DNA of 13,851 nucleotides from an uncultured Methanosarcinales archaeon (GTDB lineage: Archaea > Nanobdellota > Nanobdellia > Woesearchaeales > JACPBV01). The notes below the pieces were generated by a model that saw nothing but the letters and a program-made list of their open reading frames with translations, searched no databases and was not told the DNA's origin. The translations under genes were made by a program, and so were the position numbers. This document shows, in pieces, positions 1 through 13,851 of the stretch. The stretch is taken from contig CAZBLF010000029.1 in NCBI GenBank assembly GCA_964492935.1, positions 1 through 13,851 of the forward strand, given 5' to 3'. Each line of letters starts with the position of its first letter. Position 1 is the first letter of the stretch.

Positions 1-86
1 AAGACCATGTCTCTTCTCGCTTTAAACCACCAGTGCTTTGCCTCTAGCATATGGTACTTTTTCTCGAATTGAGGCTGCATTTCCAT
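1..86 (-). CDS. Partial CDS (first 28 codons; runs off the window start): probable class I SAM-dependent methyltransferase
   Basis: Not in the ORF track because it is truncated. My minus-strand translation from the ATG at 86..84 reads MEMQPQFEKKYHMLEAKHWWFKARRDMV with no stop before the window edge. The HWWF-x-RR motif is typical of N-termini of Methyltransf_11/23-type enzymes in polysaccharide clusters. A palindromic TTTATAAA box lies at 109-116, 30 nt upstream of the ATG. Confidence 0.35.
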   Translation of the reverse strand, partial: MEMQPQFEKKYHMLEAKHWWFKARRDMV

Positions 87-108
87 GTGCTTTTAGAGTG
101 AACCTTAC

Positions 109-116
109 TTTATAAA
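109..116 (-). promoter_or_regulatory. Archaeal-type TATA box (TTTATAAA, perfectly palindromic) for the leftward methyltransferase gene
   Basis: Its 5' T at 116 is 30 nt upstream of the ATG at 86, the same spacing as at three other units in this window. An AAAAG BRE-like flank precedes it on the minus strand. Being palindromic, it could also fire rightward. Confidence 0.45.
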
Positions 117-168
117 CTTTTGTGGAGGGAAGATGTGTGTGATTCTTGATGTGACCCTACTGAGGCAC

Positions 169-205
169 GGAGCACTTATGAGCTTCCCTTGGAATCTCAT
201 GCTCC
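169..205. other. Imperfect extended hairpin or palindrome in the 212-nt divergent intergenic region
   Basis: GGAGCA(169-174) cttA TGAG(179-182) c TTCC(184-187) ctt GGAA(191-194) t CTCA(196-199) TGCTCC(200-205). This gives 14 possible base pairs with one 4-nt bulge and one 1x1 mismatch. It lies between the two divergent TATA boxes. Confidence 0.3.
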
Positions 206-258
206 TCGATGGGCGTCAGTAGGGTTACTGTAGGTTGAAACGTAAACAATAGCAAAAG

Positions 259-266
259 TTTATATA
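259..266 (+). promoter_or_regulatory. Archaeal-type TATA box (TTTATATA) for the DegT-GT2-cupin operon
   Basis: Preceded by AAAAG (BRE-like) and 40 nt upstream of the ATG at 299. It is part of a 26-nt block (259-284) nearly identical to 4191-4217. Confidence 0.5.
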
Positions 267-298
267 AACAGTTCCGTTTTTCAGAATCGATAAATACG

Positions 299-1417
299 AT
301 GATTCCCGTCTGTGAACCTGCTTTTTTTGGCAAGGAAAAAGAATATGTCCAGGAATGTATGGACACTAATTGGATCTCTTCTCTAGGTAGATTTGTACCC
401 TTATTTGAGAAAGCATTTTCTGGTTTTATTGGAACGAAACATGGTATTGCATGTAGTAATGGAACTTCAGCCTTGTATTTGGCGTATGCTTCACTCGGCA
501 TTGGACCGGGTGATGAGGTTATTATTCCTAATTTGAGTAATATTGCTTCAGCTAACTCGGTTATTTTATCGGGAGCGAAGCCGGTGCTTGTGGATATTGA
601 GGAACCTTCGATGGGGATTGATGCGAGTAAGATTGAGGAGAAGATAACCAGTAAGACTAAGGCAATCTTAGTGGTGCATTTGTATGGGCATCCTTGTGAT
701 ATGGACGCAATTCTGGAAATTACTAAAAAACATAACCTGTTGTTAGTTGAGGATTGTGCTGAGGCACATGGTGCTTCGTATAAGGGTAAGAAGGTGGGTA
801 GTTTTGGAGATGCTAGCGCATGGTCCTTTTATTCTAACAAGATTTTGATGACGGGAGAGGGTGGCATGGTGCTGACGGATAGTGCGGATGTTGAAAAGGA
901 AGCTCGCCTGATTCGTGATTTGGGTTTTACGGAGCCTCGGTTCCATCATTCTGTTCTTGGATTTAATTATCGTATGACTAATATTCAGGCTGCGATTGGA
1001 TATGCGCAAGTGGAATGTGTTGATGCGATCTTAGCAAAGAAAAAGGCGCTTAAAGCGTTGTATGATGGTCTACTTGCTGATGTGCCTGGTATTAGGGTGC
1101 AGGGTGCGGCGGATTGGGCTGAACCTGTATTGTGGATGTATGTTATTTTTCTTGAAGATTCTTTTGGGATGACGCCTAAAGAACTAATGGGAGTGTTGAA
1201 AGAGAAGGGCATTGATTCACGTCCGTTATTTTTTCCTTTTCACAGACAGCCGTTGTATACTGAAGGTGGCGATGATCGGTATCCTAATTGTGAAGGTGAT
1301 TTTCCGGTTTCTGACAAGGTTTCGGAGACGGGATTGTACCTGCCTTCTGGAATTAACTTAACTGAGGAGCAGGTTGGTACGATTGTTGATGCGTTGAAGG
1401 AGGCTAGCAAGGCATGA
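299..1417 (+). CDS. PLP-dependent sugar aminotransferase, DegT/DnrJ/EryC1/StrS family
   Basis: 372 aa. The N-terminus PVCEPAFFGKEKEYVQECMDTNWIS is typical of the family, as are GTSALYLA, VEDCAEAHGA and the Schiff-base lysine context SFYSNKILMTGEGGMV. It overlaps the next gene by ATGA. Confidence 0.9.
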   Translation: MIPVCEPAFFGKEKEYVQECMDTNWISSLGRFVPLFEKAFSGFIGTKHGIACSNGTSALYLAYASLGIGPGDEVIIPNLSNIASANSVILSGAKPVLVDIEEPSMGIDASKIEEKITSKTKAILVVHLYGHPCDMDAILEITKKHNLLLVEDCAEAHGASYKGKKVGSFGDASAWSFYSNKILMTGEGGMVLTDSADVEKEARLIRDLGFTEPRFHHSVLGFNYRMTNIQAAIGYAQVECVDAILAKKKALKALYDGLLADVPGIRVQGAADWAEPVLWMYVIFLEDSFGMTPKELMGVLKEKGIDSRPLFFPFHRQPLYTEGGDDRYPNCEGDFPVSDKVSETGLYLPSGINLTEEQVGTIVDALKEASKA

Positions 1418-2112
1418 TTTCGATTATTCTTGCTACGTTTAACGAGAAAGAGAACATTCAGGATATGATTGATAGTTTGACGAAGGAAATTAAAGAACCT
1501 TTGGAGATTGTGGTGGTTGATGATAACAGTCCGGATGGAACTGCGGATTTAGTTGCTGGTTTGAAATATGATCACGTTACCTTGATTAGACGGAAGAAGA
1601 CGAAGGGTCTGGCTACTGCGTTTAATCGTGGTATTATCGAATCTAAAGGTGATATTGTGGGTTGGATGGATAGTGATATGTGTATGCCGCCTGCTTTAGT
1701 GCCTAAGATGATTTCTCTTTTGAAGGAATATGATGCGGTTGTTGGATCACGTTATGTGAAGGGTGCAAAAGATACGCGTGCTCCTATTCGAACGATTACG
1801 AGTACGATGATCAATGGATTGGCTGGCTTTGTGTTGGGATATGGGATTAAGGATTATGATAGTGGCTTTATTGTGTTGAAGCGATCGGTGTTTAACGAGG
1901 TTACACTGTATCCTAAGGGCTATGGTTCGTACTTTATTGAATTGTTGTTCGATATTCGCAAGAAGGGAATGACGGTGAAGGAGATTCCCTATACGTTTAA
2001 TGAGCGTTCGAAAGGAACATCGAAAAGCTTTTCTAGTTGGTTTAATTTGATTACTCTTGGAATGGAATATGTTATTCGGATTTTTAAAACTCGATTGAAG
2101 AGGACCCGATGA
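1414..2112 (+). CDS. Family 2 glycosyltransferase, dolichyl/polyprenyl-phosphate sugar synthase-like (DPM1/ArnC/AglD-like)
   Basis: 232 aa. ISIILATFNEKENI...VVVDDNSPDGT is the GT-A N-terminal signature, followed by a DSD acidic motif (WMDSDM). Size and layout match DPM1-type enzymes. ATGA overlaps occur on both sides. Confidence 0.85.
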   Translation: MISIILATFNEKENIQDMIDSLTKEIKEPLEIVVVDDNSPDGTADLVAGLKYDHVTLIRRKKTKGLATAFNRGIIESKGDIVGWMDSDMCMPPALVPKMISLLKEYDAVVGSRYVKGAKDTRAPIRTITSTMINGLAGFVLGYGIKDYDSGFIVLKRSVFNEVTLYPKGYGSYFIELLFDIRKKGMTVKEIPYTFNERSKGTSKSFSSWFNLITLGMEYVIRIFKTRLKRTR

Positions 2113-2483
2113 AGCTTGCGACTTTAGTAAAACCTTCGTTTACTCGTAAGGATGAACGTGGATTGTTTCAGGAAGTGCTGAATGGTGGCACGTGGAAGGT
2201 GTTGTTGCAAGGTAACATGAAACCGGGCGCCATTATGGGGAATCACTTTCATAAGAAGACTGATATTTTCTTCTTTTTGCCTTCTGGTACAGCAGATGTG
2301 TATTTGGAGCATTCTGAGACAGGAGAGAAAGAGGAATGTAAGCTAGAAGCTGAAGAGGGTATTCATATCAGTCGTCTTGTTTCTCACGCGATTAAATATA
2401 CTGCCGATAGTACCTTTATTTTGTTGAAAACTAATTTTGATGCGGACGATGAGGATCTGCACGAACATATTCTTGTAGAATAA
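2109..2483 (+). CDS. Small cupin-fold protein, FdtA/WxcM-like sugar ketoisomerase or epimerase candidate
   Basis: 124 aa. F-x-RKDERG-LFQE, then GNHFHKK followed by beta-strand-like segments (DIFFFLPSGTADVYLE), resembles the RG-x-HAHKK core of FdtA/WxcM-type cupins. It is translationally coupled to the GT2 and sits in an operon with a DegT aminotransferase. Confidence 0.55.
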   Translation: MKLATLVKPSFTRKDERGLFQEVLNGGTWKVLLQGNMKPGAIMGNHFHKKTDIFFFLPSGTADVYLEHSETGEKEECKLEAEEGIHISRLVSHAIKYTADSTFILLKTNFDADDEDLHEHILVE

Positions 2484-3158
2484 TTATTCTTTTACGGTTG
2501 AGAAGATTGTGTGTAGGTAAAATACTGTTCTTAACAGTTCTGTTGCGATGTTTAATGTATAGAACGCTAGGATGATCTGTACGTTTGCGAAGATGATGAA
2601 GGGAAATGCTACCTTGTTGAAGTCGATGAGCATGGTGAAGAGTCTTGCTGGACCTTTATTCTTTCCTTTTGCTTTCTCTAGGTTGGTTTCAGTCTTTTCG
2701 GTGTAATCGAAGACGCGTTCTCTCGCACTCGTTACTGCTAGAAGCGTTAGGGCTGCGATCAGGATGTAGATGCTGTTGAAATTGTTCCTGAAATGGAAGA
2801 ATAGACCTAGGGCTAGTGCTACATAGAAGATTCTATTTACTAGAAGATCTCCGATTGCATCGTACAGGAAGCCTTTCTTTGAGAATTTCTTGGTGATTCT
2901 CGCAATTGCGCCATCGGCACAGTCTAATAGGATACCTAGTTCGAATAGGATTACGGTTGGAAGTTTAAGGAACATGAATGCGGTTACAATGCTTGCTAGT
3001 TTTGCTAGAAGGTTTAAGGTGGTAACTTGGTTAGGGGTTGCTCTTAGTTTTAGGAGAACCCAGGTTAATGGTACTGAGAGATAGCGGTACATCATCTGGT
3101 GGATTAACTTGTAGTGCCACGGCTTCGCGCTTTTCTTTAAGATGTATTTGAAATTCAT
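2484..3158 (-). CDS. CDP-alcohol phosphotransferase family integral membrane protein (canonical motif)
   Basis: 224 aa and hydrophobic throughout. It carries the complete signature D-x2-DG-x2-AR-x8-G-x3-D-x3-D as LLDCADGAIARITKKFSKKGFLYDAIGD (nt 2847-2924). Confidence 0.85.
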   Translation of the reverse strand: MNFKYILKKSAKPWHYKLIHQMMYRYLSVPLTWVLLKLRATPNQVTTLNLLAKLASIVTAFMFLKLPTVILFELGILLDCADGAIARITKKFSKKGFLYDAIGDLLVNRIFYVALALGLFFHFRNNFNSIYILIAALTLLAVTSARERVFDYTEKTETNLEKAKGKNKGPARLFTMLIDFNKVAFPFIIFANVQIILAFYTLNIATELLRTVFYLHTIFSTVKE

Positions 3159-3181
3159 AGGTTACCTGGATTTGTGTGTTT

Positions 3182-4093
3182 TTATAAGGGTTTTCCTTCT
3201 AGCAGTGCGTTTATTGCCATGGCCCATCCTTCGGGACCGGTGCCATCTACTCTGATTATTGAAGAATTTTCTGGAAGTTCTACATGTCCTTTAGGCTTTG
3301 CCACTTGGTAGCCTTTGTCTGCCCATTCTTCCATGCCGTGATCGCTTTGGGAATCGCCTAGTCCAACGGTAAAAACTCCTTGAGGGTATTTGATTTCGTA
3401 CATTTGCTTGAGGGCTTTACACGCCTCTTCTTTTGAAACTTCATTGTTATCGCGTCCCTTACCGACTAAGTGGTAGCGGCCTCGACTCCATGTATATCCT
3501 GCATCCTCTAATTCCTGTTTGAATCGCGCTATTTTTTCTTCGTCATCGTCGAAGCCTCCGAATTCGGTTCCAATCTTTACGGGCAGATGATATTCTTTCA
3601 TTTGATCTAGCTTTGCTAGCTCTAGGTCATAGCCGACGTCTCTGCCTAGTTCTTGGGGAGACATCTCCGTATAAAGTCTGATTTCAAATGGGAGTTCTTT
3701 TTGTAGTTCATGTAGGAATCTCGTTGTTTCGTCGACTCCAATGTTGTATTCTAGAAGGTTGTATGTTGCATTATCTTCGACTCTCTCCTCATCGGCGAGC
3801 CAAGGTCTAAATTCTTCATGCTCTTCTAACTCACTACGACTTAGAAAATCTTCTGGGACGTAGATGACGCTTCCGTTTTCTGCTATTAATGGAAAGGGAT
3901 TATCTAATCTTCGAATGTCTAGGAGTGCGAGAGCTGCTGATTTGCCGGTAACGAAAGATATGGGGATTTCAGCTTCAATAGCTGCATCGTAGGCGTCTCG
4001 TGAGAGATCGTCTTTAGCGGTGCGATCGTCTATGTAGCAACCATCCATATCGGTAAGAATGATTGTTTGTTCAAGATCTTGGTCTGCATGCAT
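3182..4093 (-). CDS. HAD superfamily phosphatase, subclass IIB-like (MPGP/Cof-like), very acidic
   Basis: 303 aa. Motif I is ILTDMDGCYIDD, motif II FVTGKS and motif IV GLGDSQSDHGM, with a large cap insertion between motifs II and IV. A 23-nt gap separates it from the downstream CDP-alcohol transferase. Confidence 0.7.
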   Translation of the reverse strand: MHADQDLEQTIILTDMDGCYIDDRTAKDDLSRDAYDAAIEAEIPISFVTGKSAALALLDIRRLDNPFPLIAENGSVIYVPEDFLSRSELEEHEEFRPWLADEERVEDNATYNLLEYNIGVDETTRFLHELQKELPFEIRLYTEMSPQELGRDVGYDLELAKLDQMKEYHLPVKIGTEFGGFDDDEEKIARFKQELEDAGYTWSRGRYHLVGKGRDNNEVSKEEACKALKQMYEIKYPQGVFTVGLGDSQSDHGMEEWADKGYQVAKPKGHVELPENSSIIRVDGTGPEGWAMAINALLEGKPL

Positions 4094-4115
4094 GTAATTT
4101 ACACATGAAAAAGCC

Positions 4116-4123
4116 TATATAAA
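4116..4123 (-). promoter_or_regulatory. Archaeal-type TATA box (TTTATATA on the minus strand) for the HAD/CDP-alcohol-transferase operon
   Basis: Its 5' T at 4123 is exactly 30 nt upstream of the ATG at 4093. An AGAAAGA purine flank lies upstream on the minus strand. Confidence 0.5.
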
Positions 4124-4190
4124 TCTTTCTCTTTTTACTACTTGATAATGGTACTTATATTTCATAGTGCTCCTGTTATGTTTAGGTACA

Positions 4191-4198
4191 TTTATAAA
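4191..4198 (+). promoter_or_regulatory. Archaeal-type TATA box (TTTATAAA) for the nucleotidyltransferase/kinase-fusion/RLP operon
   Basis: Exactly 30 nt upstream of the ATG at 4221, which supports 4221 rather than 4167 as the start. It begins a block (4191-4217) nearly identical to 259-284. Confidence 0.55.
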
Positions 4199-4220
4199 AA
4201 CAGTTTTGTTCTTTCAGGGG

Positions 4221-4937
4221 ATGAAAGCGTTAATTTTAGCGGCTGGAATGGGAAGTCGATTGATGCCGTATACTGAGGAAACTCCGAAGTGTTTGTTGAA
4301 GGTGGGGGAGGTTCCGATGTTGGCTTTGCAGTTGAAGGCATTGCATGCTATTGGGATTCGCGATATTGTTGTGGTTACTGGTTATTTGAAAGAGAAAGTA
4401 GAGGAAGTTGTTGGAGATCAGGGGAAATGTATCTTTAATCCTGATTTTGAGACTCATGGGATTTTGCATTCGTTTTTAGCTGCTAAAGAAGAGGTGTATG
4501 GCGAGGAATTTTTGTATTTGGCAGGAGATATTGTGTATAATGCTAAGATTCCGTCTTTGATTGCTTCTGGTAAAGGAGATATTGCTATTGGTGTTGATCG
4601 GAAGCCTTGCAACGAGGAGCATTCAAAAGTGTTAGTTGAGAACGGCCAGGTTGTGGAGATGGCTAAGACGATTGTTTGTGGGGAAGCTACTGGTGAATTT
4701 GCTCATATTGCTAAGTTTTCTAAGGAAGGCAGTAAGGCGTTCTTTGATGTGATTGAGGAAACGCTTGCTGAGAAAGATGCGCGTGCGTATATGATGGATG
4801 CGTTGAACAAGGTTCGCGACAAGGGTTTGGTTATGCTTCCGGTGTACACTGACGGGTATGCTCGGATTGAAATTGATTTTATTGAGGATTTAGAGAAAGC
4901 CCGAAAGATGGTGTTTCATGAAACTGACGCTCGTTAG
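4221..4937 (+). CDS. Sugar- or alcohol-phosphate nucleotidyltransferase (LicC/IPCT/PntC-like)
   Basis: MKALILAAGMGSRLMPYTEETPKCLLKV is the G-x-G-(S/T)-R...PK nucleotide-binding signature. It is 238 aa from the ATG at 4221. The track ORF begins at 4167, but that extension would start upstream of the TATA box. It overlaps the next gene by 20 nt. Confidence 0.8.
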   Translation: MKALILAAGMGSRLMPYTEETPKCLLKVGEVPMLALQLKALHAIGIRDIVVVTGYLKEKVEEVVGDQGKCIFNPDFETHGILHSFLAAKEEVYGEEFLYLAGDIVYNAKIPSLIASGKGDIAIGVDRKPCNEEHSKVLVENGQVVEMAKTIVCGEATGEFAHIAKFSKEGSKAFFDVIEETLAEKDARAYMMDALNKVRDKGLVMLPVYTDGYARIEIDFIEDLEKARKMVFHETDAR

Positions 4938-6309
4938 ACACGGTCAGACTGAGGAAAATGCTTCTGGTATTATTCAGGGACAGAGTCGTGGAACGTTAAG
5001 TGAAAAGGGGAAGCTGCAGGCTGCGGAGCTTGGGGAGACTTTGAAGAATCATTCTTTCGATGTGATTATTTCTAGTAGTTCTAATCGTGCCAAGAATACG
5101 GCGTCGGTGATTGGTGAGGGGCATGATGTTGCATTGGAGTTGTCTGATGCAATTCGTGAGAGAAATTTGGGTGTTGCAGAGGGAACTGCTGTAGGGGCGG
5201 CACATGGGTTGATGAAGGAGACGCCGGAAGGTGGGGAATCGTTAGCTCAGGTTAGGGATCGTGCCGAGGCGTTTGCTCGAGAATTGCTTGCAAAAGAATA
5301 TTCTTCTTGTTTGATTGTATCGCATAATGGATTTCTTGCGCATTTGATGGGATTTTTTCAGGCAAAGGCAATTGATTCTTGTTTAGACTTTAAAATTGAA
5401 CATGGTGAAGTTTTGGAGATTGATATTTCTCTCGTTGATGTGGGGAATTTGAATTATGTATACAAGATTACGCTGAATGGAATTACTGGATATTTGAAGC
5501 AGGCTCTGACAGAGTATCGTAAATCGTTTCCTGGTGAGAAAGAGTTGCCGTTGAAAGAGGATCGATTGGCGAATGAGGTTGCTGCTCTGAAGCAATTGAA
5601 TGCTTTGGATGTTTCTGGTTTTACCTTTCCTTCGGTGTTGTCGTATGATGCTGCCCATAATCTAGTGTTGTTATCTGAAATTACGGGAAAAACATTGCTC
5701 TCTTATTTCTTGGAGGGTGTTTTTGATGAAGCGCATGCTTCTGCTGCGGGAGATGCTCTGGGATTGTTGCATGCGGTGGATGCTGCTGGCATTCGAAAGG
5801 ATGATGATGCTTTCTTTAAGGAGATTGTTCGGTTTCGAAGCGTGGTGAGTAGTCATGCGCTAGGTTCGGAGCATCAGAAATTGATTGCTGAACGGTTTGA
5901 TACTATTTTTGCTGATGGTTTTCCAAAATCTTTGTTGATTGGTGATTTTTCTCCTAAGCAGTTGTTGTTATCTGGAGGTTCTGTGGGTGTTGTGGACTTG
6001 GAATTTGCTTGTAAAGGTGATGCGGCATTCGATGTTGGCTTTTTCTTGGCGCACTATGTGCTGGAGGAGATGAAGGGTGCTGATTCTGGTGCGGTAGAGG
6101 GTGCTATGAAGGCCTTTATTGAGGCGTATGGGAAGCATGTTGCTATTGAAGGGATGAAATCAAGGATACTTTTTTATATGGGAGCGGGATTACTCAATAG
6201 AGTCGATGGCACGGTTCGGGGTGGCGATATCAATGAAGCAATTGTCGCTGCTATCAGGGAACGATCGATAAAAATTATTAGTGGGGAAGTAACCTATGGA
6301 ATGGGATAA
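4918..6309 (+). CDS. Bifunctional fusion: N-terminal histidine phosphatase (PGM/cofactor-dependent mutase family) plus C-terminal MtnK-like (APH/choline-kinase fold) kinase
   Basis: 463 aa. Residues 1-~168 carry LVRHGQTEEN (RHG motif), SSSSNRAKNTA (conserved Arg) and IVSHNGFL (second His). From residue ~175, VGNLNYVYKI and GYLKQAL match the MtnK GDGNLNYVF and IIKQAV motifs. IGDFSPKQLLL is the catalytic-loop Asp, VVDLEFACKGDAAFDVGFF the D-x-EF metal loop, and MGAGLLNRVDG matches the MtnK C-terminal helix. Confidence 0.8.
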   Translation: MKLTLVRHGQTEENASGIIQGQSRGTLSEKGKLQAAELGETLKNHSFDVIISSSSNRAKNTASVIGEGHDVALELSDAIRERNLGVAEGTAVGAAHGLMKETPEGGESLAQVRDRAEAFARELLAKEYSSCLIVSHNGFLAHLMGFFQAKAIDSCLDFKIEHGEVLEIDISLVDVGNLNYVYKITLNGITGYLKQALTEYRKSFPGEKELPLKEDRLANEVAALKQLNALDVSGFTFPSVLSYDAAHNLVLLSEITGKTLLSYFLEGVFDEAHASAAGDALGLLHAVDAAGIRKDDDAFFKEIVRFRSVVSSHALGSEHQKLIAERFDTIFADGFPKSLLIGDFSPKQLLLSGGSVGVVDLEFACKGDAAFDVGFFLAHYVLEEMKGADSGAVEGAMKAFIEAYGKHVAIEGMKSRILFYMGAGLLNRVDGTVRGGDINEAIVAAIRERSIKIISGEVTYGMG

Positions 6310-7495
6310 CGACATAACAATAACTTATTTTATCAAGAAGGCGATTGCCACGAAGAAATCGTTGCGCGAGGTTGTAGATACCATTGCAGCAGGGATTAGT
6401 ATTGGGACGCTACAGGTAGCATATGATGCTCATACCACTAAATGGCACGCGGATAAGGCTGCGAATCCTAATGCGTATAAGGCAGAGGTTGAGGAGTATA
6501 GCGTATTGCCGATGGATGAGAATTCTGCTGTTGTGAAAATTAAGGTTTGTAGTGATTTAATGGATTTGAAGCATTGTTCTTTCGCGACGTTGCTCTCTTT
6601 TATTGCTGGCGATGTTTTTGGGACGTCGTATGACGCGGAAGAGATTCGCGTTTTGGATATTGACTTTTCTGAAAAGGCATTGGCTCAGTTTAAGGGTCCT
6701 AAATTCGGAAGTGAAGGTATTCGGAAGATGCTTGGATTGGAGAATAGTGATCGGCCGTTGCAGGCTTTGATTTTGAAACCGAATACCGGTCAGCCAAGTT
6801 CTCATTACGCCGATATTGCTTACAAGGCTGCATTAGGTGGGATGGATTTCATCAAGGATGACGAATTAAACATTAATCCTACGTCGTGTCCGTTTGAGGA
6901 GCGTGTCAAGATGATTTGTGATGCGTTGAAAGAGGCTGAAAAGGAGACGGGCAAGAAAACTATCTATGCTCCAAATATTTCGTTCCGACCTGAATATATG
7001 AAGGAATATGCTCGAAAAGCTATTGCGGCTGGAGCTAGTGCATTGATGATGAATATTGTGTATGTGGGTATGACTGCGGTGCAGATGATTGCTGAGGATC
7101 CGGAATTTAATGTTCCTATTTACGTGCATCGAGCAGGACATGATTTCTTTACGAGAAATGAGGTAGGTATTGCGATGCCGGTTATGACTAAGTTTTTCCG
7201 ATTGTCGGGAGCTGACATTATGTCGGTGGGTCCGGTCTTTGGTGGTTTAGAGACGAAGGAAACGGTTAAGAAGACGTATGAAGCAGTTAATGCGGATATG
7301 TATGGCATTAACAAGTCTCTTGCTGTTGTTTCTCGATCAAGTAAGGATATTGTTCAGGGTACTGTGGATTGGTTGCAGACGAAGAATGTGATGTTCTTGG
7401 CGGATGGCGGAATTTACAACGGTCCTGAAGGTATTACTGCTACAACCAAAGAGATGAAAGAGACGATTGAGAAAGTTCAGATTCAATCTGCTTGA
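6296..7495 (+). CDS. RuBisCO large-subunit-like protein (form IV RLP), not a carboxylase
   Basis: 399 aa. DRPLQALILKPNTGQ...GGMDFIKDDELN aligns by eye to GRPLLGCTIKPKLGL...GGLDFTKDDENV. VHRAGH corresponds to IHRAMH, and RLSGADIMSVGPVFGGLE to MSGGDHIHSGTVVGKLE. The K334 and H327 equivalents are lost. It overlaps the upstream kinase fusion by 14 nt. Confidence 0.85.
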   Translation: MEWDNDITITYFIKKAIATKKSLREVVDTIAAGISIGTLQVAYDAHTTKWHADKAANPNAYKAEVEEYSVLPMDENSAVVKIKVCSDLMDLKHCSFATLLSFIAGDVFGTSYDAEEIRVLDIDFSEKALAQFKGPKFGSEGIRKMLGLENSDRPLQALILKPNTGQPSSHYADIAYKAALGGMDFIKDDELNINPTSCPFEERVKMICDALKEAEKETGKKTIYAPNISFRPEYMKEYARKAIAAGASALMMNIVYVGMTAVQMIAEDPEFNVPIYVHRAGHDFFTRNEVGIAMPVMTKFFRLSGADIMSVGPVFGGLETKETVKKTYEAVNADMYGINKSLAVVSRSSKDIVQGTVDWLQTKNVMFLADGGIYNGPEGITATTKEMKETIEKVQIQSA

Positions 7496-8313
7496 TTTTT
7501 TAATTTTTTATAGTTTTCTTCTGGAAGTAATTGGGATGCTAGGGTTGCGTCGCGTCCGTGGAAGTCGGAGCCGCCTGAAAGTAATAAGTTTAGTTTTTCT
7601 GCTTCCTTTTTTATGGTAGATGCGGAATATTTTTCGAATGCATCTGCACGATAGGGATAGAAGTGTTCTATTGCGTCTCCGCCTGCCTTTTTGAAATCGT
7701 GGATGAGTGTTTTGGCATCGGTATTGCTGTAGACGAGGGGATGTGCTAGTATTGCTAAGCCGCGAGCATTATGAATTGCATCGATTGCTTGTTTGAAGGT
7801 GGTTGTTTGCTTTCTGTTTTTGTAGGCAGGTTGTCCATTGCCGATGAGGGTATCAAATACCTGGTCAGGGGTTTCTAGTTGTTTGTTGTTTTTCATGAGG
7901 ATTGATGCGATGTGTGGGCGGCCGATCGTTCCTTTCGCTAGTTTGTGTACTTCCTCGTACGTTATCTTGTAGCCGAGCTTTTGTAATGCTTGTATCATGT
8001 CTTTCTTTTGTACTATTCTCGCTTTTTGGGCTTTGTCAACGATTTCTAGAATGTCTTTGTGGTTTGGGTCGATGAAGAGACCGAGAATGTGGATATCGGA
8101 GTGTTGTGGATGATCTGCGGTTATTTCGATGCCCGGAACTACGGTGAGTGTTGTGTTCTTGGCTGCTTTTTGTGCAGCTGCGATGCCTGCGGTGGTGTCG
8201 TGGTCGGTTATTCCGATGACATCTAGGCGTTCTTTTAGCGCTGCATCAATTAATTCTTTTGGAGAAAGCTTGCCGTCGGAGGCGGTGGTATGAGTATGGA
8301 GATCGATGCGCAT
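7483..8313 (-). CDS. PHP-domain metal-dependent phosphoesterase (TrpH/YciV-like); candidate 3',5'-bisphosphonucleotide (pAp) phosphatase
   Basis: 276 aa. MRIDLHTHTTASDG is the PHP His-x-His start, followed by ITDHDT, the ILAHP His and GGSDFHG. It is the last gene of the Sat-CysC operon, with only 3 nt between it and cysC. Confidence 0.75.
   Translation of the reverse strand: MRIDLHTHTTASDGKLSPKELIDAALKERLDVIGITDHDTTAGIAAAQKAAKNTTLTVVPGIEITADHPQHSDIHILGLFIDPNHKDILEIVDKAQKARIVQKKDMIQALQKLGYKITYEEVHKLAKGTIGRPHIASILMKNNKQLETPDQVFDTLIGNGQPAYKNRKQTTTFKQAIDAIHNARGLAILAHPLVYSNTDAKTLIHDFKKAGGDAIEHFYPYRADAFEKYSASTIKKEAEKLNLLLSGGSDFHGRDATLASQLLPEENYKKLKNQAD
7496..7510 (+). terminator. Oligo-T tract (TTTTTTAATTTTTTA), a candidate archaeal intrinsic terminator for the RLP operon
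   Basis: It follows the RLP stop codon (7493-7495) directly. The same bases on the other strand encode the Lys-rich C-terminus (KKLKN) of the convergent PHP gene. Confidence 0.35.
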
Positions 8314-8316
8314 GCC

Positions 8317-8832
8317 TTAACAAATTCCCTTGTCTTTTAAAGCTTGTCTTAGTTGTTGTGCTGCTTGTTCTGGTGTTGTGTTTTGGGTGTCTATTGTGAC
8401 TTCGGGTTGCTCAGGTTCCTCGTAAGGTACATTTAATCCTACGAAGTCTTTTATCTCTCCTGATCTGAATTTTTTATAGTGACCTTTGACATCTCGTTCC
8501 TCGCAAATTTCGATTGGGCATTTGATGTAGACTTCGATGAATTTTTTTATCTGATTTCTGGCATATTCTCTAATTGCCTTGGTGGGAGAGATGACGCAGG
8601 CTATGCTCAGGATGTGGTCGCTTGTTAAGAGTGCACAAATATCTGCTACTCTTGTGATGTGCTTGTCGCGATCTTCTTTTGTATAGCCGAGATCCTTAGA
8701 AATGGTTTTTCTGACGATATCTCCATCTAATAGAGCTACCTGGATGTTTTCTTTTCTTAATTGCTCTACTAATAGCTCGGCAATGGTGGATTTTCCTGCT
8801 CCGGAAAGCCCGGTAAACCAGATTGTGGTCAT
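8317..8832 (-). CDS. cysC: Adenylylsulfate (APS) kinase
   Basis: 171 aa. IWFTGLSGAGKSTIA is the P-loop, LDGDIVR the substrate motif, and SPTKAIRE follows. ATGA overlap with sat. Confidence 0.92.
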   Translation of the reverse strand: MTTIWFTGLSGAGKSTIAELLVEQLRKENIQVALLDGDIVRKTISKDLGYTKEDRDKHITRVADICALLTSDHILSIACVISPTKAIREYARNQIKKFIEVYIKCPIEICEERDVKGHYKKFRSGEIKDFVGLNVPYEEPEQPEVTIDTQNTTPEQAAQQLRQALKDKGIC

Positions 8833-9971
8833 ATGAGGACCTCGTGAGATAATTCTTGTGCAACTTCTTTGCGCATGAACTCTTTTGGTGGAATCTCTTT
8901 CTTAGACAACATGTCACGGATGAGTGTTCCAGAGATTTCGATTTGTTCCTCTACAGGATGCGGACACGTCTTTTCTGTTGCGATGGAATCACAGTGTTTG
9001 CAGAAGTAGGGTCCTTTTAGTTTGAGGATTTCAATGCCTAGATCATCGAATTTGTCGGTGAACTCCTGGGCTTCGTACTTTTTGTAAAATGAGCCTACAC
9101 CTGCGTGGTCGCGACCTACAATGAAATGGGTGCATCCGAAGTTTTTACGGATGATTGCGTGGAAGACGGCCTCTCGGGGTCCGGCATAACGCATCTGGGT
9201 AGTGAGTGCCGATAAGATTGCACTGTTTTTCGGATAATAGTGTTCGATTAAGGTTTTGTAGCCGTTGATGACGGCTTCTGGAGTGTAGTCGCCCTTCTTT
9301 TTCCAGCCGATTAGGGGATGGAGTAGGATTCCATCTGTTAATTCTAATGCTGCTTTTTGCAAATATTCGTGTGCACGGTGAGGTACGTTTCTTGTCTGGA
9401 AGCCGGTGATTGTTTTCCAGCCTCGCTTCTCGAACTCTGCTCGGGTTTGTTTAGGTGTTAGTTGTACGCCGGGTACAATTGGATCGGGTTCGCCAATCAT
9501 ATCGATTTCTCCTGCAAGCATGATATTGCCGGAATCGTGAAGCTTTTTTACTCCAGGATGGGTTAGATCTTGAGTTCCGAAAATGGCTTGGGATGCTTCG
9601 GTGAGATTAGCCGTATAGATTTGCTCGAGATGCATCTGGGCAATAAGCTTATCATTTTCGTCGAATAGATTGATGTCGTCGCCCTCCTTGACGTTTTCTG
9701 GTACCTTTTGCAGTGGACAGGTCACCGGAACGGTGAACGGGAGATTGTTTTCTAGTCTCGACTCGTGCAGAATGTTGAGAAAGTCGTTCTGAGTTACAAA
9801 TCCTTGTAGCGGTGAAAAAGCTCCTTGTGCAATATTTGCAATATCTAGGATCGTTTCTCGGCTGATGGTGATTTTGGGTAGTTCGTTTGCCTGTGCGATT
9901 GCCTTTTCTCTTCTTTCTCCGGTGAGTAATCGGTCAATTAATTCATTTCCATGTGGTTTATTTGCTTTCAT
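8829..9971 (-). CDS. sat: Sulfate adenylyltransferase (ATP sulfurylase), short homo-oligomeric type
   Basis: 380 aa. GFQTRNVPHRAHE corresponds to the QxRNPxHxxH motif, and HFIVGRDHAGVG is also present. A C-terminal C-x2-C-x8-C-x-H cluster (FCKHCDSIATEKTCPH) resembles the Cys/His zinc site of Thermus/archaeal-type enzymes. Confidence 0.92.
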   Translation of the reverse strand: MKANKPHGNELIDRLLTGERREKAIAQANELPKITISRETILDIANIAQGAFSPLQGFVTQNDFLNILHESRLENNLPFTVPVTCPLQKVPENVKEGDDINLFDENDKLIAQMHLEQIYTANLTEASQAIFGTQDLTHPGVKKLHDSGNIMLAGEIDMIGEPDPIVPGVQLTPKQTRAEFEKRGWKTITGFQTRNVPHRAHEYLQKAALELTDGILLHPLIGWKKKGDYTPEAVINGYKTLIEHYYPKNSAILSALTTQMRYAGPREAVFHAIIRKNFGCTHFIVGRDHAGVGSFYKKYEAQEFTDKFDDLGIEILKLKGPYFCKHCDSIATEKTCPHPVEEQIEISGTLIRDMLSKKEIPPKEFMRKEVAQELSHEVLI

Positions 9972-11646
9972 TTGTGCCCCCGTGTTGTTTGAAAAATCCT
10001 AGGAATTCATCTACCTTGTGGACTTCCACCATATTGATGATCTTTCGGTGATTAGGAAATACTGCTCCTGCGAGGACGATGGTGTCTTGCTCCTCGATTA
10101 ATTGATTCTTGATACAGGCCATGATTGCCTCCTTCTTTTGCTCGACGGATCCCGAATTATCTATTTCATGCTCGACTTGTAATGGGATGACTCCTCTTAG
10201 GAGTTTCAATCTTCTTACGATTTTTATGTTGCTTGTTAGTGCTATAATGGGGAATGAGCTATTGAATCTCGCTAGCATTCTCGCGGAAAAGCCGCCATGA
10301 GTGATACAGAGGAGCTTGTCGATATGCGTATGCTTTGAGAGATCGATAATCATCTTTGAGCAGGCGTCGCTGGGATCGGTGGACTCGTTATCATTCTCTA
10401 AATCGAGAATTGGCGTTTCCTCCTCGCATTCTTGAATGACTGTTGACATTACTTTGACTGCTTGTTCCGGGTTTGCGCCTATCGCCGTTTCACCGGAGAG
10501 CATGACTGCGGACGCGCCATCCATGACTGCGGACGCGATATCTGCTACCTCTGATTTCTTCGGTAGTGGTTGCGTTACCATCGAATGGAGCATTTCTGTA
10601 GCGACGATGACTGGCTTTGCTCTTTTATTTCCTTCTTCGATGATATGCTTCTGAAGCATAGGGACTTTTTGGAAGGAGACTTCGCTTCCTAGGTCTCCCC
10701 GATCGATCATGATGCCATAGGCTGCTTCGATGATGCCGGAAACATTTTTGATTGCTTCCTGATTCTCTACTTTTGCAATGATTTTGATTGTTGATCCCTC
10801 TAACTTTTTTTCTACCGTTCGAACTTCGTCTGCAGTATTGACGAATGATAGCCCGACGAAATCTACTTGTTCTTTTTTTGCGAATGCTATACACTTGTTT
10901 TCTTTTTCCTGTATAGATTCGCGGCTGAGGATCGCTCCGGGAATATTGACGCCTTTGCCTTCTTGTAGGACTGCATCATGCTGGACGAGGCAGGTTACGT
11001 TGTTTCCATCGATTGATTGTACGGTAATTGCGATTGAGCCGTCATCCATGAGCAACTCTTGCCGAGGTTTGACGTGTTTTGGGAATTCAGGTAGATCGAC
11101 ACCGATAGCATCTCCTTCTGGAGTGGTTGAGAGGATGATTGTGGAGTTGGCTTTGAGGATGCGAGGCTCTTTTAATCCGCGAACGCGTACTTTGGGGCCA
11201 GGGATGTCTAATAGAATAGGAATAGTTGCGTCTACTTCGCGTACTTTCTTGATGATGTCGCTATGTTGTTCGGGATTGCCGTGGGATGAATTTATTCTTG
11301 CTACATCCATCCCTGCATTCTTGAGTTTGGTGATTTCTTCAATGGAATTGGTTACAGGACCGATCGTTGCGATGATTTTTGTCTTCTTGATCATGATTTG
11401 CCTTGTAGATCCGATTTCGGCGAGAATTTCTTTAGTTGTGGCAGACTCGTGATTGAGAACATAGAAGATTGCGTTTCCTAAGGACTCTGCTTTGACTACG
11501 GACTCGTCTTCCAGTTCCTTGAGAATTTTGTGGGCACTTCCTACGCTGATGGAAAGAGTTTTGGCGATTTGATTAATCGTTAATCGGCGAGATGCATTTC
11601 TATCTAGAAACGAAATGATCTTTTGGGTGTTTTTGGAGACTGCCAT
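9958..11646 (-). CDS. Fusion of an N-terminal winged helix-turn-helix domain (~aa 1-80) to a full-length pyruvate kinase (A, B and C domains)
   Basis: 562 aa. The wHTH is LTINQIAKTLSISVGSAHKILKELEDESVVKAESLGNAIFYVL. The PK motifs are KTKIIATIGP, ARINSSHG, DIPGPKVRV, KIIAKVENQEA, IMIDRGDLGSEV, VIVATEMLHSM and VMLSGETAIG, with a C-domain ITHGGFSARMLARF...PIIALT. An internal Met85 (nt 11394-11392) sits at the domain junction. It is the first gene of the sat-cysC-PHP operon, with a 14-nt overlap with sat. Confidence 0.85.
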   Translation of the reverse strand: MAVSKNTQKIISFLDRNASRRLTINQIAKTLSISVGSAHKILKELEDESVVKAESLGNAIFYVLNHESATTKEILAEIGSTRQIMIKKTKIIATIGPVTNSIEEITKLKNAGMDVARINSSHGNPEQHSDIIKKVREVDATIPILLDIPGPKVRVRGLKEPRILKANSTIILSTTPEGDAIGVDLPEFPKHVKPRQELLMDDGSIAITVQSIDGNNVTCLVQHDAVLQEGKGVNIPGAILSRESIQEKENKCIAFAKKEQVDFVGLSFVNTADEVRTVEKKLEGSTIKIIAKVENQEAIKNVSGIIEAAYGIMIDRGDLGSEVSFQKVPMLQKHIIEEGNKRAKPVIVATEMLHSMVTQPLPKKSEVADIASAVMDGASAVMLSGETAIGANPEQAVKVMSTVIQECEEETPILDLENDNESTDPSDACSKMIIDLSKHTHIDKLLCITHGGFSARMLARFNSSFPIIALTSNIKIVRRLKLLRGVIPLQVEHEIDNSGSVEQKKEAIMACIKNQLIEEQDTIVLAGAVFPNHRKIINMVEVHKVDEFLGFFKQHGGTNESK

Positions 11647-11647
11647 A

Positions 11648-11669
11648 TTAGTGAATGATTATTCACTTA
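11648..11669. promoter_or_regulatory. Inverted repeat (candidate operator) directly upstream of the HTH-PK start codon
   Basis: TTAGTGAAT (11648-11656), a gatt spacer, then ATTCACTTA (11661-11669). The core AGTGAAT/ATTCACT is a perfect 7-nt inverted repeat. It lies between the minus-strand TATA (11681-11688) and the ATG (11646). Confidence 0.5.
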
Positions 11670-11680
11670 ATTTGTGCTTG

Positions 11681-11688
11681 TTTATAAA
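11681..11688 (-). promoter_or_regulatory. Archaeal-type TATA box (TTTATAAA, palindromic) for the HTH-PK/sat/cysC/PHP operon
   Basis: 42 nt upstream of the ATG at 11646. The implied ~10-15 nt leader contains the inverted repeat. Confidence 0.45.
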
Positions 11689-11714
11689 GACATCGCTTTT
11701 TGAGACGTTATATC

Positions 11715-11723
11715 ATTCACTTA
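11715..11723 (+). promoter_or_regulatory. Third copy of the 9-mer ATTCACTTA, upstream of the rightward promoter
   Basis: An exact direct repeat of 11661-11669, 54 nt away. It ends 16 nt upstream of the TATA at 11739. Confidence 0.4.
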
Positions 11724-11738
11724 CTATTTTCCCATATG

Positions 11739-11746
11739 TTTATATA
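11739..11746 (+). promoter_or_regulatory. Archaeal-type TATA box (TTTATATA) for the CDP-alcohol-transferase-like/GT4 operon
   Basis: 29 nt upstream of the ATG at 11768. This supports 11768 rather than 11615 as the start. Confidence 0.5.
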
Positions 11747-11767
11747 GCGTGTGCTGCTCATAGGGGT

Positions 11768-12436
11768 ATGGTTAAGATTCCTGCTAAGTATGATCGAAGT
11801 GTGGTGATGCGTGTTTTCGCGCGTCCGGTAGGGAATTTGATGATTCCTCTTTTTATGAAGCTCGGTATTACAGGAAATCAACTTTCGATCTTCAATATCT
11901 TTTTTACGTTGTTTAGTTTTCTGTTGATTGGGACTGATAGTTTAGTCATTGGTGCTTTGTTGTTGCAATTTACTATTATTTTTGATACGATGGATGGTAC
12001 TTTGTCTAAAATGAGAAAGCAGAAGTCGCTGTATGGGCGGTATCTAGAAAAGATTTGGCATAATGCGATTGTTCCTTTCTTGTTCGTTGCGCTTGGATGT
12101 AATGTGACTTTGAACAACGGAGATAGTATGTATTGTTTGATTGGATTCTTCATTACGGGATCGATCTTGGTCGTTAATCTTATTGAATTTATTCGTCGGT
12201 ATACGTTTCAGGTTGCTCCTAAGGCACTGGATGCTGATCAGACGGTGAAATCTGAGAAATCGTTGTTGCAGATTGTGGTGCGAGCTATCGGAGATACTTC
12301 GTACATCTTCATGTACGTGTTGGTGTTTGGATATGCTGGTTACCTGGATATGCTGGTGTTGTTTTACGGAGTCTTTTACGGATTGTTGTTTGTTGTCAAA
12401 TTCTTTCAGTTTCTTGGAAAACCAAAGGGTTTTTAA
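11768..12436 (+). CDS. CDP-alcohol phosphotransferase-like integral membrane protein with a degenerate signature motif
   Basis: 222 aa from the ATG at 11768; the track start at 11615 would overlap the PK gene and both promoters. It is hydrophobic throughout. The motif DTMDGTLSKMRKQKSLYGRYLEKIWH (nt 11984-12061) reads D-x2-DG-x2-SK-x8-G-x3-E-x3-H, so AR is replaced by SK, the third Asp by Glu and the fourth Asp by His. Confidence 0.6.
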   Translation: MVKIPAKYDRSVVMRVFARPVGNLMIPLFMKLGITGNQLSIFNIFFTLFSFLLIGTDSLVIGALLLQFTIIFDTMDGTLSKMRKQKSLYGRYLEKIWHNAIVPFLFVALGCNVTLNNGDSMYCLIGFFITGSILVVNLIEFIRRYTFQVAPKALDADQTVKSEKSLLQIVVRAIGDTSYIFMYVLVFGYAGYLDMLVLFYGVFYGLLFVVKFFQFLGKPKGF

Positions 12437-12459
12437 TGGTTTGAGGACTTTAACGACGT

Positions 12460-13482
12460 ATGGTCAAGATTGGTTTAGTTAGTCCGTTTTTACCGGAACA
12501 GGATGGTATTGCTGTGTATAGCGATAATCTGTATGTTGGTGCGGGTAAGAAAAACATTGTTCGTATTGGTCGGGTGAAGGGTGACTGTGAGTATGTGGTT
12601 GATTTTACTTCTTTTAGTTTACGGAGCAAGCTGGAGCATATTATTGCTAAGGAGAAATTGGATGTGGTGCACTTTCAGTATGTTGCCTCTCTTTTTGGGA
12701 AACGTAATTTGAATCTTGCATTTATTCGGGCGCTCTCGTTGTCGGTTCCGGTTGTGGTGACATTACACGAGGTGCAGTATGGTCAGGGGGGGATGCGGAA
12801 TAGGTTATTGTCGATGTTGGAAAAGAAGATTATTTCTCGTGCGGCTCTGGTTATTGTACATACCCCTGAACAACGAACGTTCTTGGAGAAAAAATATGGT
12901 GCTTCGAACATTCGGTGCATCTATCACGGGTTGTGGAGCAAGTCTGGTGGGGTTGGAGATGCTAAAAGTGTGTTGTTCTTTGGGATGATTTCTGAAGCGA
13001 AGGGTGTTCCCTCCTTAATTGGTGCGATGGATTATCTGGGTGATTATTCTTTGACTATTGCTGGAAGGTTTGTGGATGATGCTAGTGAGAAGTCTGTGAG
13101 AGATGCTCTGAAAAAGAGTGCGGCAAAGATTACTACTGATTTTGGATGGATTGACGAGAAAAAGAAGGAATTATTGTTTCGGAAGGCTGCTGTTTGTGTT
13201 TTACCGTATACGTGGGCACCGTATCAGTCTGGGATTTTGCATAATGCGTTGTCGTTTCAGGTTCCGGTTGTGGTTACTGATGTTGGTGCTTTGCCGGAGA
13301 TTGTTTCTTCGTTTCATTGTGGCGAGGTTGTTAACACTGATGCAAAATCGCTTGCTGCAGGTATTGAAAAGGTGGTGCGACAACCAGGTAGGTATCGTAC
13401 GGGAATTACTAGTTATCAAAAGAAGGCTGACTGGAAGGTTGTTGCTGAAGAACATATGACCTTGTATGGTGGCTTGAAGTAA
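12460..13482 (+). CDS. GT-B fold glycosyltransferase, family 4-like
   Basis: 340 aa. It has the MVKIGLVSPFLP N-terminus, LFFGMISEAKGV, and a C-terminal LPY...SGILHNALSFQVPVVVTDVGALPEIV block homologous to the GT4 donor-binding region. The usual E-x7-E acidic residues are not obviously conserved. Confidence 0.75.
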   Translation: MVKIGLVSPFLPEQDGIAVYSDNLYVGAGKKNIVRIGRVKGDCEYVVDFTSFSLRSKLEHIIAKEKLDVVHFQYVASLFGKRNLNLAFIRALSLSVPVVVTLHEVQYGQGGMRNRLLSMLEKKIISRAALVIVHTPEQRTFLEKKYGASNIRCIYHGLWSKSGGVGDAKSVLFFGMISEAKGVPSLIGAMDYLGDYSLTIAGRFVDDASEKSVRDALKKSAAKITTDFGWIDEKKKELLFRKAAVCVLPYTWAPYQSGILHNALSFQVPVVVTDVGALPEIVSSFHCGEVVNTDAKSLAAGIEKVVRQPGRYRTGITSYQKKADWKVVAEEHMTLYGGLK

Positions 13483-13487
13483 AGGTT

Positions 13488-13495
13488 TTTAAAAA
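13488..13495 (+). promoter_or_regulatory. TATA-like box (TTTTAAAA) upstream of the phosphonopyruvate decarboxylase gene
   Basis: 28 nt upstream of the ATG at 13516. It is followed by AACAATTG, which resembles the AAACAGTT that follows the TATA boxes at 259 and 4191. Confidence 0.4.
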
Positions 13496-13515
13496 CAATT
13501 GCATTCGATAGGACT

Positions 13516-13851
13516 ATGTTATCGTGTAAGGCATTTTTCGAATTACTCGTCAAGGATGTAGGTTTCTTTACAGGTGTTCCTGATTCTTTGCTGAAAGATT
13601 TTTGTGGTTATGTTGCTGATCACGCAGAGAAGCATGTGATTGCTGCGAATGAGGGTAATGCTGTTGGTATTGCAGCCGGATATCATCTTGCTTCGGGTAA
13701 GGTGCCCTTAGTGTATATGCAGAATTCTGGTCAGGGAAACGCGGTGAATCCGTTGTTATCGTTGGCAGATCCGAAAGTGTATGGTATTCCTATGCTCTTG
13801 CTTGTTGGGTGGAGAGGCGAACATGGTGTTGCAGATGAAACTCAACATGTT
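13516..13851 (+). CDS. ppd: Partial CDS (N-terminal 112 codons; runs off the window end): thiamine-diphosphate-dependent phosphonopyruvate decarboxylase
   Basis: Not in the ORF track because it has no stop. My translation is [154 protein letters not shown] and NPLLSLADP are the hallmarks I recognise from Ppd/AepY N-terminal TPP pyrimidine-binding domains. Confidence 0.72.

Follow-up and report, generated by a model that had tools for sequence, protein, structure and literature searches.

Four consecutive open reading frames (ORFs) on the minus strand occupy positions 7483 to 11646 of a 13,851-nucleotide stretch of archaeal DNA, contig CAZBLF010000029.1 of assembly GCA_964492935.1, which was deposited as an uncultured Methanosarcinales archaeon and is placed by GTDB in the Woesearchaeales; the whole of this stretch is referred to below as the window. 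They encode a pyruvate kinase (PK) with a winged helix-turn-helix (wHTH) domain fused to its N-terminus, an ATP sulfurylase (Sat), an adenosine 5'-phosphosulfate (APS) kinase (CysC) and a PHP-family phosphoesterase, with junctions of -14 nt (PK/sat), -4 nt (sat/cysC) and +3 nt (cysC/PHP). The first-pass annotation had presented them as a self-contained operon for the supply of 3'-phosphoadenosine 5'-phosphosulfate (PAPS), and the identities, order and spacing that it gave for the four genes agree with the ORF coordinates and with Pfam and NCBIfam. The genes and the parts of the leading protein are as follows.

9958-11646, minus strand: wHTH::pyruvate kinase, 562 amino acids (Pfam and NCBIfam match)
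about 11413-11634, within the PK gene: wHTH domain, residues ~5-78, with a linker at residues 80-84
10456-11388, within the PK gene: PK barrel, residues 87-397
10018-10368, within the PK gene: PK_C domain, residues 427-543
8829-9971, minus strand: ATP sulfurylase, Sat (Pfam and NCBIfam match)
8317-8832, minus strand: APS kinase, CysC (Pfam and NCBIfam match)
7483-8313, minus strand: PHP-family phosphoesterase (PF02811)

In the PK gene, Pfam finds an HTH_24 domain (27.2 bits; cut-off 21.9) followed by a complete PK barrel (PF00224, 296.5 bits) and PK_C (PF02887, 70.7 bits), and the protein matches TIGR01064 over its full length with 417.5 bits against a cut-off of 306.4. Its residues R117, N119, D147, K292, E294, D318, T350, S384 and E386, which we take to be the counterparts of rabbit PK R73, N75, D113, K270, E272, D296, T328, S362 and E364, are invariant in 10/10 members of the fusion clade and in all 39 of the 39 short PKs described below. 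A Lys stands where rabbit E117, the K+-dependence switch, presumably maps, which suggests that the window PK is of the K+-independent type. Sat combines PUA_2 and ATP-sulfurylase domains and exceeds the cut-offs of both NF003166 (483.5 vs 387) and TIGR00339 (385.6 vs 322.95); it keeps the motifs HRAH at residue 198 and GRDHAG at 286, and its QxRNP motif reads QTRNVP. CysC has the APS_kinase domain, scores 201.4 against a TIGR00455 cut-off of 138.7 and keeps the P-loop GLSGAGKS and the LDGD motif. The nearest named relatives are a Sat from a marine 'Nanoarchaeota' metagenome-assembled genome (MAG), at 67% identity, and a 'Candidatus Woesearchaeota' PK. By these relatives the source is probably a marine DPANN archaeon (Woesearchaeota/Nanoarchaeota), one of a group of tiny archaea of symbiotic type, and the TATA-like promoter elements described below suit an archaeal origin. 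The identical PK is present on eight metagenome contigs, and a metagenome scan with it returned one further identical contig only and otherwise distant ordinary PKs.

The fourth protein is similar over its full length to the COG0613 proteins 2yb1, 7ug9 (a 5'-3' exoribonuclease) and 9etk in the PDB, with E values from 7e-26 (2yb1) to 2e-39, and has their N-terminal HTHT metal motif; it differs in falling below both of the NCBIfam equivalog cut-offs that it comes nearest to, those for RNase RNM (185.4 vs 375 bits) and for the 3',5'-nucleoside bisphosphate phosphatase NF041577 (176.6 vs 400 bits). It is most likely a phosphatase for 3',5'-bisphosphate nucleotide (pAp), an assignment supported by the Inositol_P-family (CysQ-like) protein that occupies the same position in a related locus of Sulfurimonas, and it could have an additional nuclease activity.

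Homologues of wHTH::PK were sought in 5.8 billion proteins, and the loci and proteins found are given L and P numbers here. They form a small clade of 8 clusters, of about 560 aa and with 42-51% PK identity, below which the scores fall sharply to ordinary bacterial PKs of about 475 aa and no more than 38% identity. The first-pass annotation depended on the PK being a regular neighbour of sat-cysC-PHP in related genomes, and it is one: Sat lies directly downstream of wHTH::PK in 8/8 lineages with a readable context, none is found in another context, and PK-Sat-CysC-PHP is complete in the window lineage (L001-L006), L007, L008, L015, L099/L100, L101 and L102/L103, the contig ending after PK-Sat in L009/L010. 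The Sat of the window shares 64-67% identity with those of L007, L008 and L015. An arrangement whose order recurs in 8 independent lineages at 41-51% PK identity exceeds chance. Among 79 other close relatives of Sat in GTDB representative genomes, from Thermoproteota and many bacteria, only that of locus L068 has a PK within 10 kb.

The PK of L068 is of a different kind, a 326-aa protein consisting of the barrel only, without the C-domain, whose gene overlaps that of CysC, which in turn overlaps that of Sat. Its family of short PKs is spread over Omnitrophica, Deltaproteobacteria, Marinimicrobia, Lentisphaerae, a bacterium of the Candidate Phyla Radiation, Sulfurimonas, Ruminococcus and Methanomicrobiales, and CysC and Sat adjoin the short PK in all four of the contexts that could be read (L068, L104, L105 and L106). 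In L105, from Sulfurimonas, the order is CysC-Sat-PK, followed by the CysQ-like protein mentioned above; in L106, from Methanomicrobiales, PK-CysC-Sat is transcribed away from two neighbouring genes, one for PHP and one for a protein that matches Sulfotransfer_3 weakly (E 0.03). In L104 a CysC::PK fusion comes directly after, and is overlapped by, a canonical Sulfotransfer_1/3 gene, with Sat a few genes farther on, in a nonulosonic-acid cluster. Such fusions of PK and APS kinase account for no fewer than 22 separate clusters in the top 120 matches and occur in both domain orders. A neighbour-joining (NJ) tree built on the barrel domain sets the short PKs apart as a clade and places the DPANN fusion clade among ordinary full-length PKs, from which it appears that PAPS synthesis recruited a PK on at least two occasions. 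A scan of viral contigs with the short-PK profile gave no match, and a tblastn search of plasmids with the short PK gave ordinary PKs only, at less than 30% identity.

These relationships bear on the simplest competing explanation, that the window protein is a general glycolytic PK co-transcribed with sat-cysC-PHP by happenstance and with no specific kinetic role in PAPS synthesis. It is indeed full-length and catalytically intact, passes the TIGR01064 equivalog cut-off and groups with ordinary PKs in the NJ tree; moreover, PK is present in only 75% of hydrothermal-vent DPANN MAGs (PMC8091004), so that it is usually at most single-copy there. A bystander would not be expected to have Sat directly downstream in every one of the eight wHTH::PK lineages and to be found in no other context, however, and the sharing of the association by a separate short-PK clade and by 22 or more PK/CysC fusions is hard to credit to chance. 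We regard this explanation as unlikely.

The explanation that we prefer, and consider probable on balance, is that the operon supplies PAPS for the sulfation of cell-surface glycan or lipid in a DPANN archaeon, with ATP recycled by the PK and expression autoregulated through the wHTH. Sat would convert ATP and sulfate to APS, and CysC would then convert APS to PAPS with release of ADP. The co-translated PK would turn that ADP back into ATP at the expense of phosphoenolpyruvate (PEP), for a net reaction of APS + PEP -> PAPS + pyruvate; with the ADP gone, the dead-end enzyme-ADP-APS complex would be relieved and the unfavourable sulfurylase equilibrium pulled. The PHP enzyme would hydrolyse the inhibitory pAp left by sulfo-transfer, and the fused wHTH would bind a palindrome, TGAAT-N4-ATTCA, through which the enzyme would repress or tune its own operon. 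We infer from the sequences that ATP is recycled, that pAp is hydrolysed, that the wHTH binds DNA and that the PAPS is used for sulfation. Recycling of the ADP of CysC, with its pull on PAPS synthesis, had been suggested in the first-pass annotation and now has strong comparative support, in the synteny, the short-PK clade, the fusions and the intact residues; a PK working with APS kinase is what would be expected from the conserved adjacency, the fusion to the ADP-producing enzyme and the exchange of PHP for CysQ. The chemistry has a direct precedent: in an in-vitro cascade without PK and PEP, PAPS was "practically missing", the APS kinase forming a dead-end enzyme-ADP-APS complex (PMC9885120).

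Recycling might not be confined to ADP. Among the PK homologues, P0243 (476 aa) is a PK::NTP_transferase fusion whose place in the NJ tree is close to the DPANN PKs, a hint that the activation of nucleotide sugars, too, may be coupled to PKs. PKs accept several nucleoside diphosphates, and the window PK might be a general recharger that turns CDP, UDP or GDP released by transferases into nucleoside triphosphates (NTPs) for the nucleotidyltransferases of the cluster. P0243 counts in favour of such a role, as does the NTP_transferase family being the next most widely shared one, in 7 lineages. Set against the one fusion to NTP_transferase, however, are the 22 or more to APS kinase among the matches listed, and the closest adjacency and the overlaps are with CysC and Sat, which makes general recharging a distinctly improbable account of the operon.

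Upstream of the PK gene lie the features on which the proposed autoregulation turns.

11681-11688, minus strand: TATA-box-like element TTTATAAA, candidate promoter of the PK operon, as read from the sequence
11652-11665, either strand: perfect palindrome TGAAT-N4-ATTCA, the sole copy in the window

The palindrome, which has the extended form GTGAAT..ATTCAC at 11651-11666, is situated 5-19 nt upstream of the PK ATG and downstream of TTTATAAA. The PK genes of L007, L008, L009, L099 and L102 are likewise preceded, at the corresponding position, by either TTTATAAA or TTTATATA, and TTTATAAA is a putative promoter element of the operon. L001, L007, L008, L015 and L099 each have a single exact copy of the palindrome, placed directly before the coding start of the wHTH, and their 141 kb contain no other (expectation, about 0.42-0.46 copies); L102 has a version with 1 mismatch at -28. 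As RNA the palindrome could fold into a hairpin of -9.6 kcal/mol (z -3.3); a protein-binding site is favoured, because the sequence is strictly conserved in otherwise diverged intergenic DNA. Archaeal repressor sites are typically found between TATA box and start codon. The fused wHTH probably has its operator in this palindrome, and autoregulation of the operon by wHTH::PK is a reasonable inference.

The domain itself is predicted to have a winged-helix fold. An AlphaFold2 model of the PK (pLDDT 83.4) has residues 5-78 as a discrete domain, joined to the PK by a low-confidence flexible linker, with helix-helix-helix-hairpin-helix topology (helices at 5-16, 24-30 and 35-47; strands at 51-56 and 59-64). 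The best profile matches of the wHTH are to ArsR/SmtB (E 0.0014), IclR and MarR repressors. Against a library of 1.84 billion proteins the domain matches mostly stand-alone wHTH proteins of 77-220 aa; the 10 matches whose architecture was checked include 3 PK fusions, in addition to P0003, known from the PK homologue search.

Further observations concern this region and locus L068. An extra ATTCAC half-site is located at 11715-11720, in the divergent intergenic region of about 120 bp, and a second TATA-like element, TTTATATA, at 11739-11746 on the plus strand, about 22 nt before the ATG at 11768 of a CDP-OH_P_transf-like gene; one regulator might serve both divergent units. In L068 a stand-alone HTH_24 protein (2934-3638; 234 aa, with a weak PglD_N match) is encoded directly after the bacterial short PK-CysC-Sat genes; it calls to mind the fused wHTH of the DPANN PKs, to which it has no detectable sequence similarity.

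With the regulatory domain as its starting point, an alternative account makes wHTH::PK mainly a metabolite-sensing regulator, or trigger enzyme, which would read PEP/ADP/ATP status and gate the expression of a costly surface-decoration cluster whose pathways draw on PEP (through PEP mutase and NeuB) and on ATP; recycling of ATP for CysC would be secondary. The fused wHTH with its ArsR/SmtB, IclR and MarR matches is in keeping with this, as are the overlap of the conserved palindrome with the expected transcription start, the position of the operator in a divergent intergenic region common, in the window, to the CDP-OH_P_transf/GT4/Ppd genes, and the PEP mutase or NeuB genes that adjoin in L001, L008, L015, L099, L104 and L106. 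The short PKs and PK/CysC fusions, however, have no wHTH and retain the linkage to Sat and CysC, and because they do, the association is independent of regulation; furthermore, all of the catalytic residues are kept. This account is compatible with ATP recycling and does not exclude it, and we think it improbable that regulation is the main role of the protein.

As to the genomic setting, the other window ORFs of at least 80 aa all have a Pfam assignment (10/10): a DegT aminotransferase, a family 2 glycosyltransferase (GT2), an FdtA-like cupin, two CDP-alcohol phosphotransferase-like proteins, a HAD-IIB phosphatase, an NTP transferase, a His_Phos_1::APH fusion, a RuBisCO-like protein and a GT4 glycosyltransferase. 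The setting is one of glycan and lipid synthesis, as had been described for the operon. Past the right end of the window are the rest of a phosphonopyruvate decarboxylase, an iron-dependent alcohol dehydrogenase (Fe-ADH), two sulfatase-family proteins, a Fom1-like CTP_transf_like::PEP mutase, a flippase and a second GT4.

from 13516: phosphonopyruvate decarboxylase, its first 112 codons inside the window and the rest beyond the right end
13516-13851 and beyond (1892-8131 in L001): Fom1-like phosphonate cluster

PEP mutase and the decarboxylase also adjoin the operon in L008, L015 and L099, often with several B12-radical S-adenosylmethionine (SAM) genes. From these flanking genes, therefore, the operon stands in a cluster for the decoration of surface glycan or lipid that also makes phosphonate, and phosphonate and sulfate chemistry may meet on one shared surface molecule. 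Two roles tied to phosphonate were considered and rejected. Sat and CysC acting on phosphonates and not on sulfate is contradicted by their equivalog scores and kept motifs. A PK run backwards to feed PEP mutase would be driving a thermodynamically disfavoured reaction, and the PK/CysC linkage persists where PEP mutase is missing.

Pfam found no sulfotransferase, PAPS reductase or sulfite reductase among the window ORFs, and none among the genes called up to about 10 kb away on the identical or related contigs L001-L006, L007, L008, L015, L099 and L102. The statement in the first-pass annotation that the window has neither assimilatory genes nor a recognisable sulfotransferase is upheld by these results and extends to the flanks, where cysH and sir, which would have made the operon one of plain assimilation, are missing over the same distance. 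That the operon serves assimilatory sulfate reduction, with reductases encoded elsewhere, is nonetheless conceivable in principle: the PAPS-dependent assimilation route described for Methanothermococcus thermolithotrophicus also begins with Sat, CysC and a pAp phosphatase (PMC10322725). PAPS reductase and sulfite reductase domains are missing from the window and from about 10 kb of the related loci examined, however, all of the contexts are glycan or lipid clusters, and L104 has a sulfotransferase; an assimilatory function is accordingly very improbable.

A recognisable sulfotransferase near PK-Sat-CysC was found in the non-DPANN loci only, clearly in L104 and weakly in L106, and none of the DPANN loci gave a sulfotransferase homologue by Pfam, by phmmer with the L104 and L106 sulfotransferases or by a search for PSB-loop-like motifs. 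Several proteins were considered as the PAPS consumer and set aside. A P-loop-like protein of 206 aa in L007 and proteins of 441, 268 and 295 aa and of no known family in L102 are not conserved between loci; the sulfatase-family pair beside the window is not a general consumer, because it is limited to the window lineage.

The sole further gene that travels with the operon encodes an atypical CDP-alcohol phosphotransferase-like membrane protein.

11768-12436, plus strand: CDP-alcohol phosphotransferase-like membrane protein (PF01066, weak, 30.8 bits), divergent from the PK operon
homologues: L007 14258-15001; L008 14262-15074; L015 11746-12564; L099 8982-9776

The mechanical start of this ORF is 11615, and the ATG at 11768 is the likely true start. 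In the window and in L009 this gene and the PK gene are transcribed divergently; it directly follows that of PHP in L007, L008 and L099, and lies between those of CysC and PHP in L015. In all of the operon-linked copies the fourth Asp of the signature DxxDGxxARx8GxxxDxxxD is replaced by His, and in the window copy AR is also replaced by SK and the third Asp by Glu, so that no signature with four Asp is present; the other CDP-alcohol phosphotransferase of the window (2484-3158) has the canonical one. A fold like that of the family, with an active site that is not the canonical one, is predicted for the protein. A sober reading is that it would install a phospho- or phosphono-alcohol head group, for instance from CMP-hydroxyethylphosphonate. 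A bolder one, to which we give little credence, makes it the consumer of PAPS (or APS) and one of a new family of membrane-embedded sulfotransferases, with wHTH::PK as ATP recycler and autorepressor: the phosphosulfate of APS or PAPS would mimic the diphosphate of a CDP-alcohol, and with His for the fourth Asp the sulfate would be passed to a lipid or glycan hydroxyl. This co-travelling gene, the operator-like palindrome and the adjoining phosphonate cluster are additional to what the first-pass annotation had described.

Several other features of these loci may be recorded. In 6 lineages (L008, L015, L099, L068, L105 and L106), which span both the DPANN type and the short-PK type, the PK-Sat-CysC locus includes B12-binding radical SAM genes. 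In L102, from a groundwater Woesearchaeota (14919-19635), the operon is followed by genes for the 441-aa protein, a radical SAM/SPASM protein, the 268-aa protein and a HIT-family protein, with neither a CDP-OH_P_transf-like gene nor a phosphonate gene. Within the window, the RuBisCO-like protein (6296-7495, plus strand) forms a block with 4918-6309 and 4167-4937, overlapping the His_Phos_1::APH-kinase fusion and following the NTP transferase; it scores 198 bits against a form III cut-off of 497, has KPN in place of KPK and keeps FIKDDE and HRAGH, and the block represents an unassigned sugar-phosphate pathway within the glycan cluster of a DPANN archaeon. Over its full length (1-13851) the plus strand has a positive GC skew and a negative AT skew, whichever way the genes point, and its composition is thus strongly biased by strand. 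Within the first ~298 bases there is no ORF in the three translated forward frames (the reverse strand being covered by the ORF list only), and several assemblies end near the left edge of the window. A defence system was considered and dismissed, PADLOC having returned generic domain matches only.

Some of the evidence weighs against the preferred explanation of PAPS supply with ATP recycling and autoregulation. The end use of the PAPS is unproven, given that no sulfotransferase homologue is found in the DPANN loci, and the short-PK association is drawn from four contexts only. The PK may also be the housekeeping PK of the organism; it could instead relate to PEP balance, given PEP-consuming neighbours (PEP mutase in L001, L008, L015 and L099; NeuB in L099, L104 and L106), and the P0243 fusion hints at a more general part in recharging nucleoside diphosphates. 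Pyrophosphatase is absent from the operon. The palindrome, finally, could act as an RNA hairpin or be the site of a different regulator.

Sat-CysC-phosphatase sets and Sat-CysC fusions are textbook knowledge, PHP-type pAp phosphatases are known, and regeneration with PK and PEP is standard for PAPS in vitro. As in sat/cysDN-cysC-cysQ sets, in NodPQ with the NodH sulfotransferase and in Sat-CysC fusions, Sat and CysC would make PAPS here and a phosphatase would remove pAp, and in the Nod-factor and glycan systems, too, the PAPS genes lie within the biosynthetic cluster of a sulfated surface or secreted molecule. Unlike the sat-cysC-cysQ and NodPQ sets, the window operon is led by a PK, one with a DNA-binding domain, and has a phosphatase of the PHP type; unlike NodPQ/NodH, it has no recognisable sulfotransferase nearby. 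Enzymes with a second role as regulators (trigger enzymes and enzyme-repressor fusions) include BirA, PutA and NadR; wHTH::PK resembles these in joining an intact enzyme to a predicted DNA-binding domain, with a palindrome in its own promoter. The proposed chemistry has a man-made likeness: in-vitro PAPS cascades combine ATP sulfurylase, APS kinase and PK, removal of ADP relieves the dead-end inhibition, and pyrophosphatase is added (PMC9885120), whereas in the window the combination is hard-wired genetically and in other taxa it is fused. The CTP_transf_like::PEP_mutase, phosphonopyruvate decarboxylase and Fe-ADH that adjoin the operon in 4 lineages are like those of Fom1/Fom2/FomC-type hydroxyethylphosphonate-CMP clusters for cell-surface tailoring, and surveys of phosphonate neighbourhoods make no mention of PK, Sat or CysC (PMC6697681, PMC8942020).

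The claim that a PK-led PAPS operon had not been described before stood up to a full-text literature search, which included operons, clusters and fusions of PK with APS (adenylylsulfate) kinase and found no description; nor was any report found of a PK as a trigger enzyme or enzyme-repressor. Two things thus appear undescribed: the dedication of a PK to PAPS supply, be it as operon leader, neighbour or fusion partner, and the fusion of a PK to a DNA-binding domain that has a conserved candidate operator.

PAPS synthesis is awkward both in its thermodynamics and in its kinetics: the equilibrium of the sulfurylase reaction lies far to the wrong side, and ADP together with APS traps APS kinase. 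The remedy that enzymologists apply in vitro, PK with PEP, has seemingly been hard-wired in nature at least twice, in the DPANN operon and in the short-PK clade. If this is true, it would give a function to many proteins labelled "pyruvate kinase" that inflate the calls of glycolysis in MAG reconstructions, provide compact natural modules of PAPS regeneration for biocatalytic sulfation, and serve as a marker, in uncultured archaea and bacteria, of glycan and lipid clusters that are likely to make sulfated surface molecules; and a candidate enzyme-repressor with a defined operator would be added to the DPANN regulators known so far, of which there are very few.

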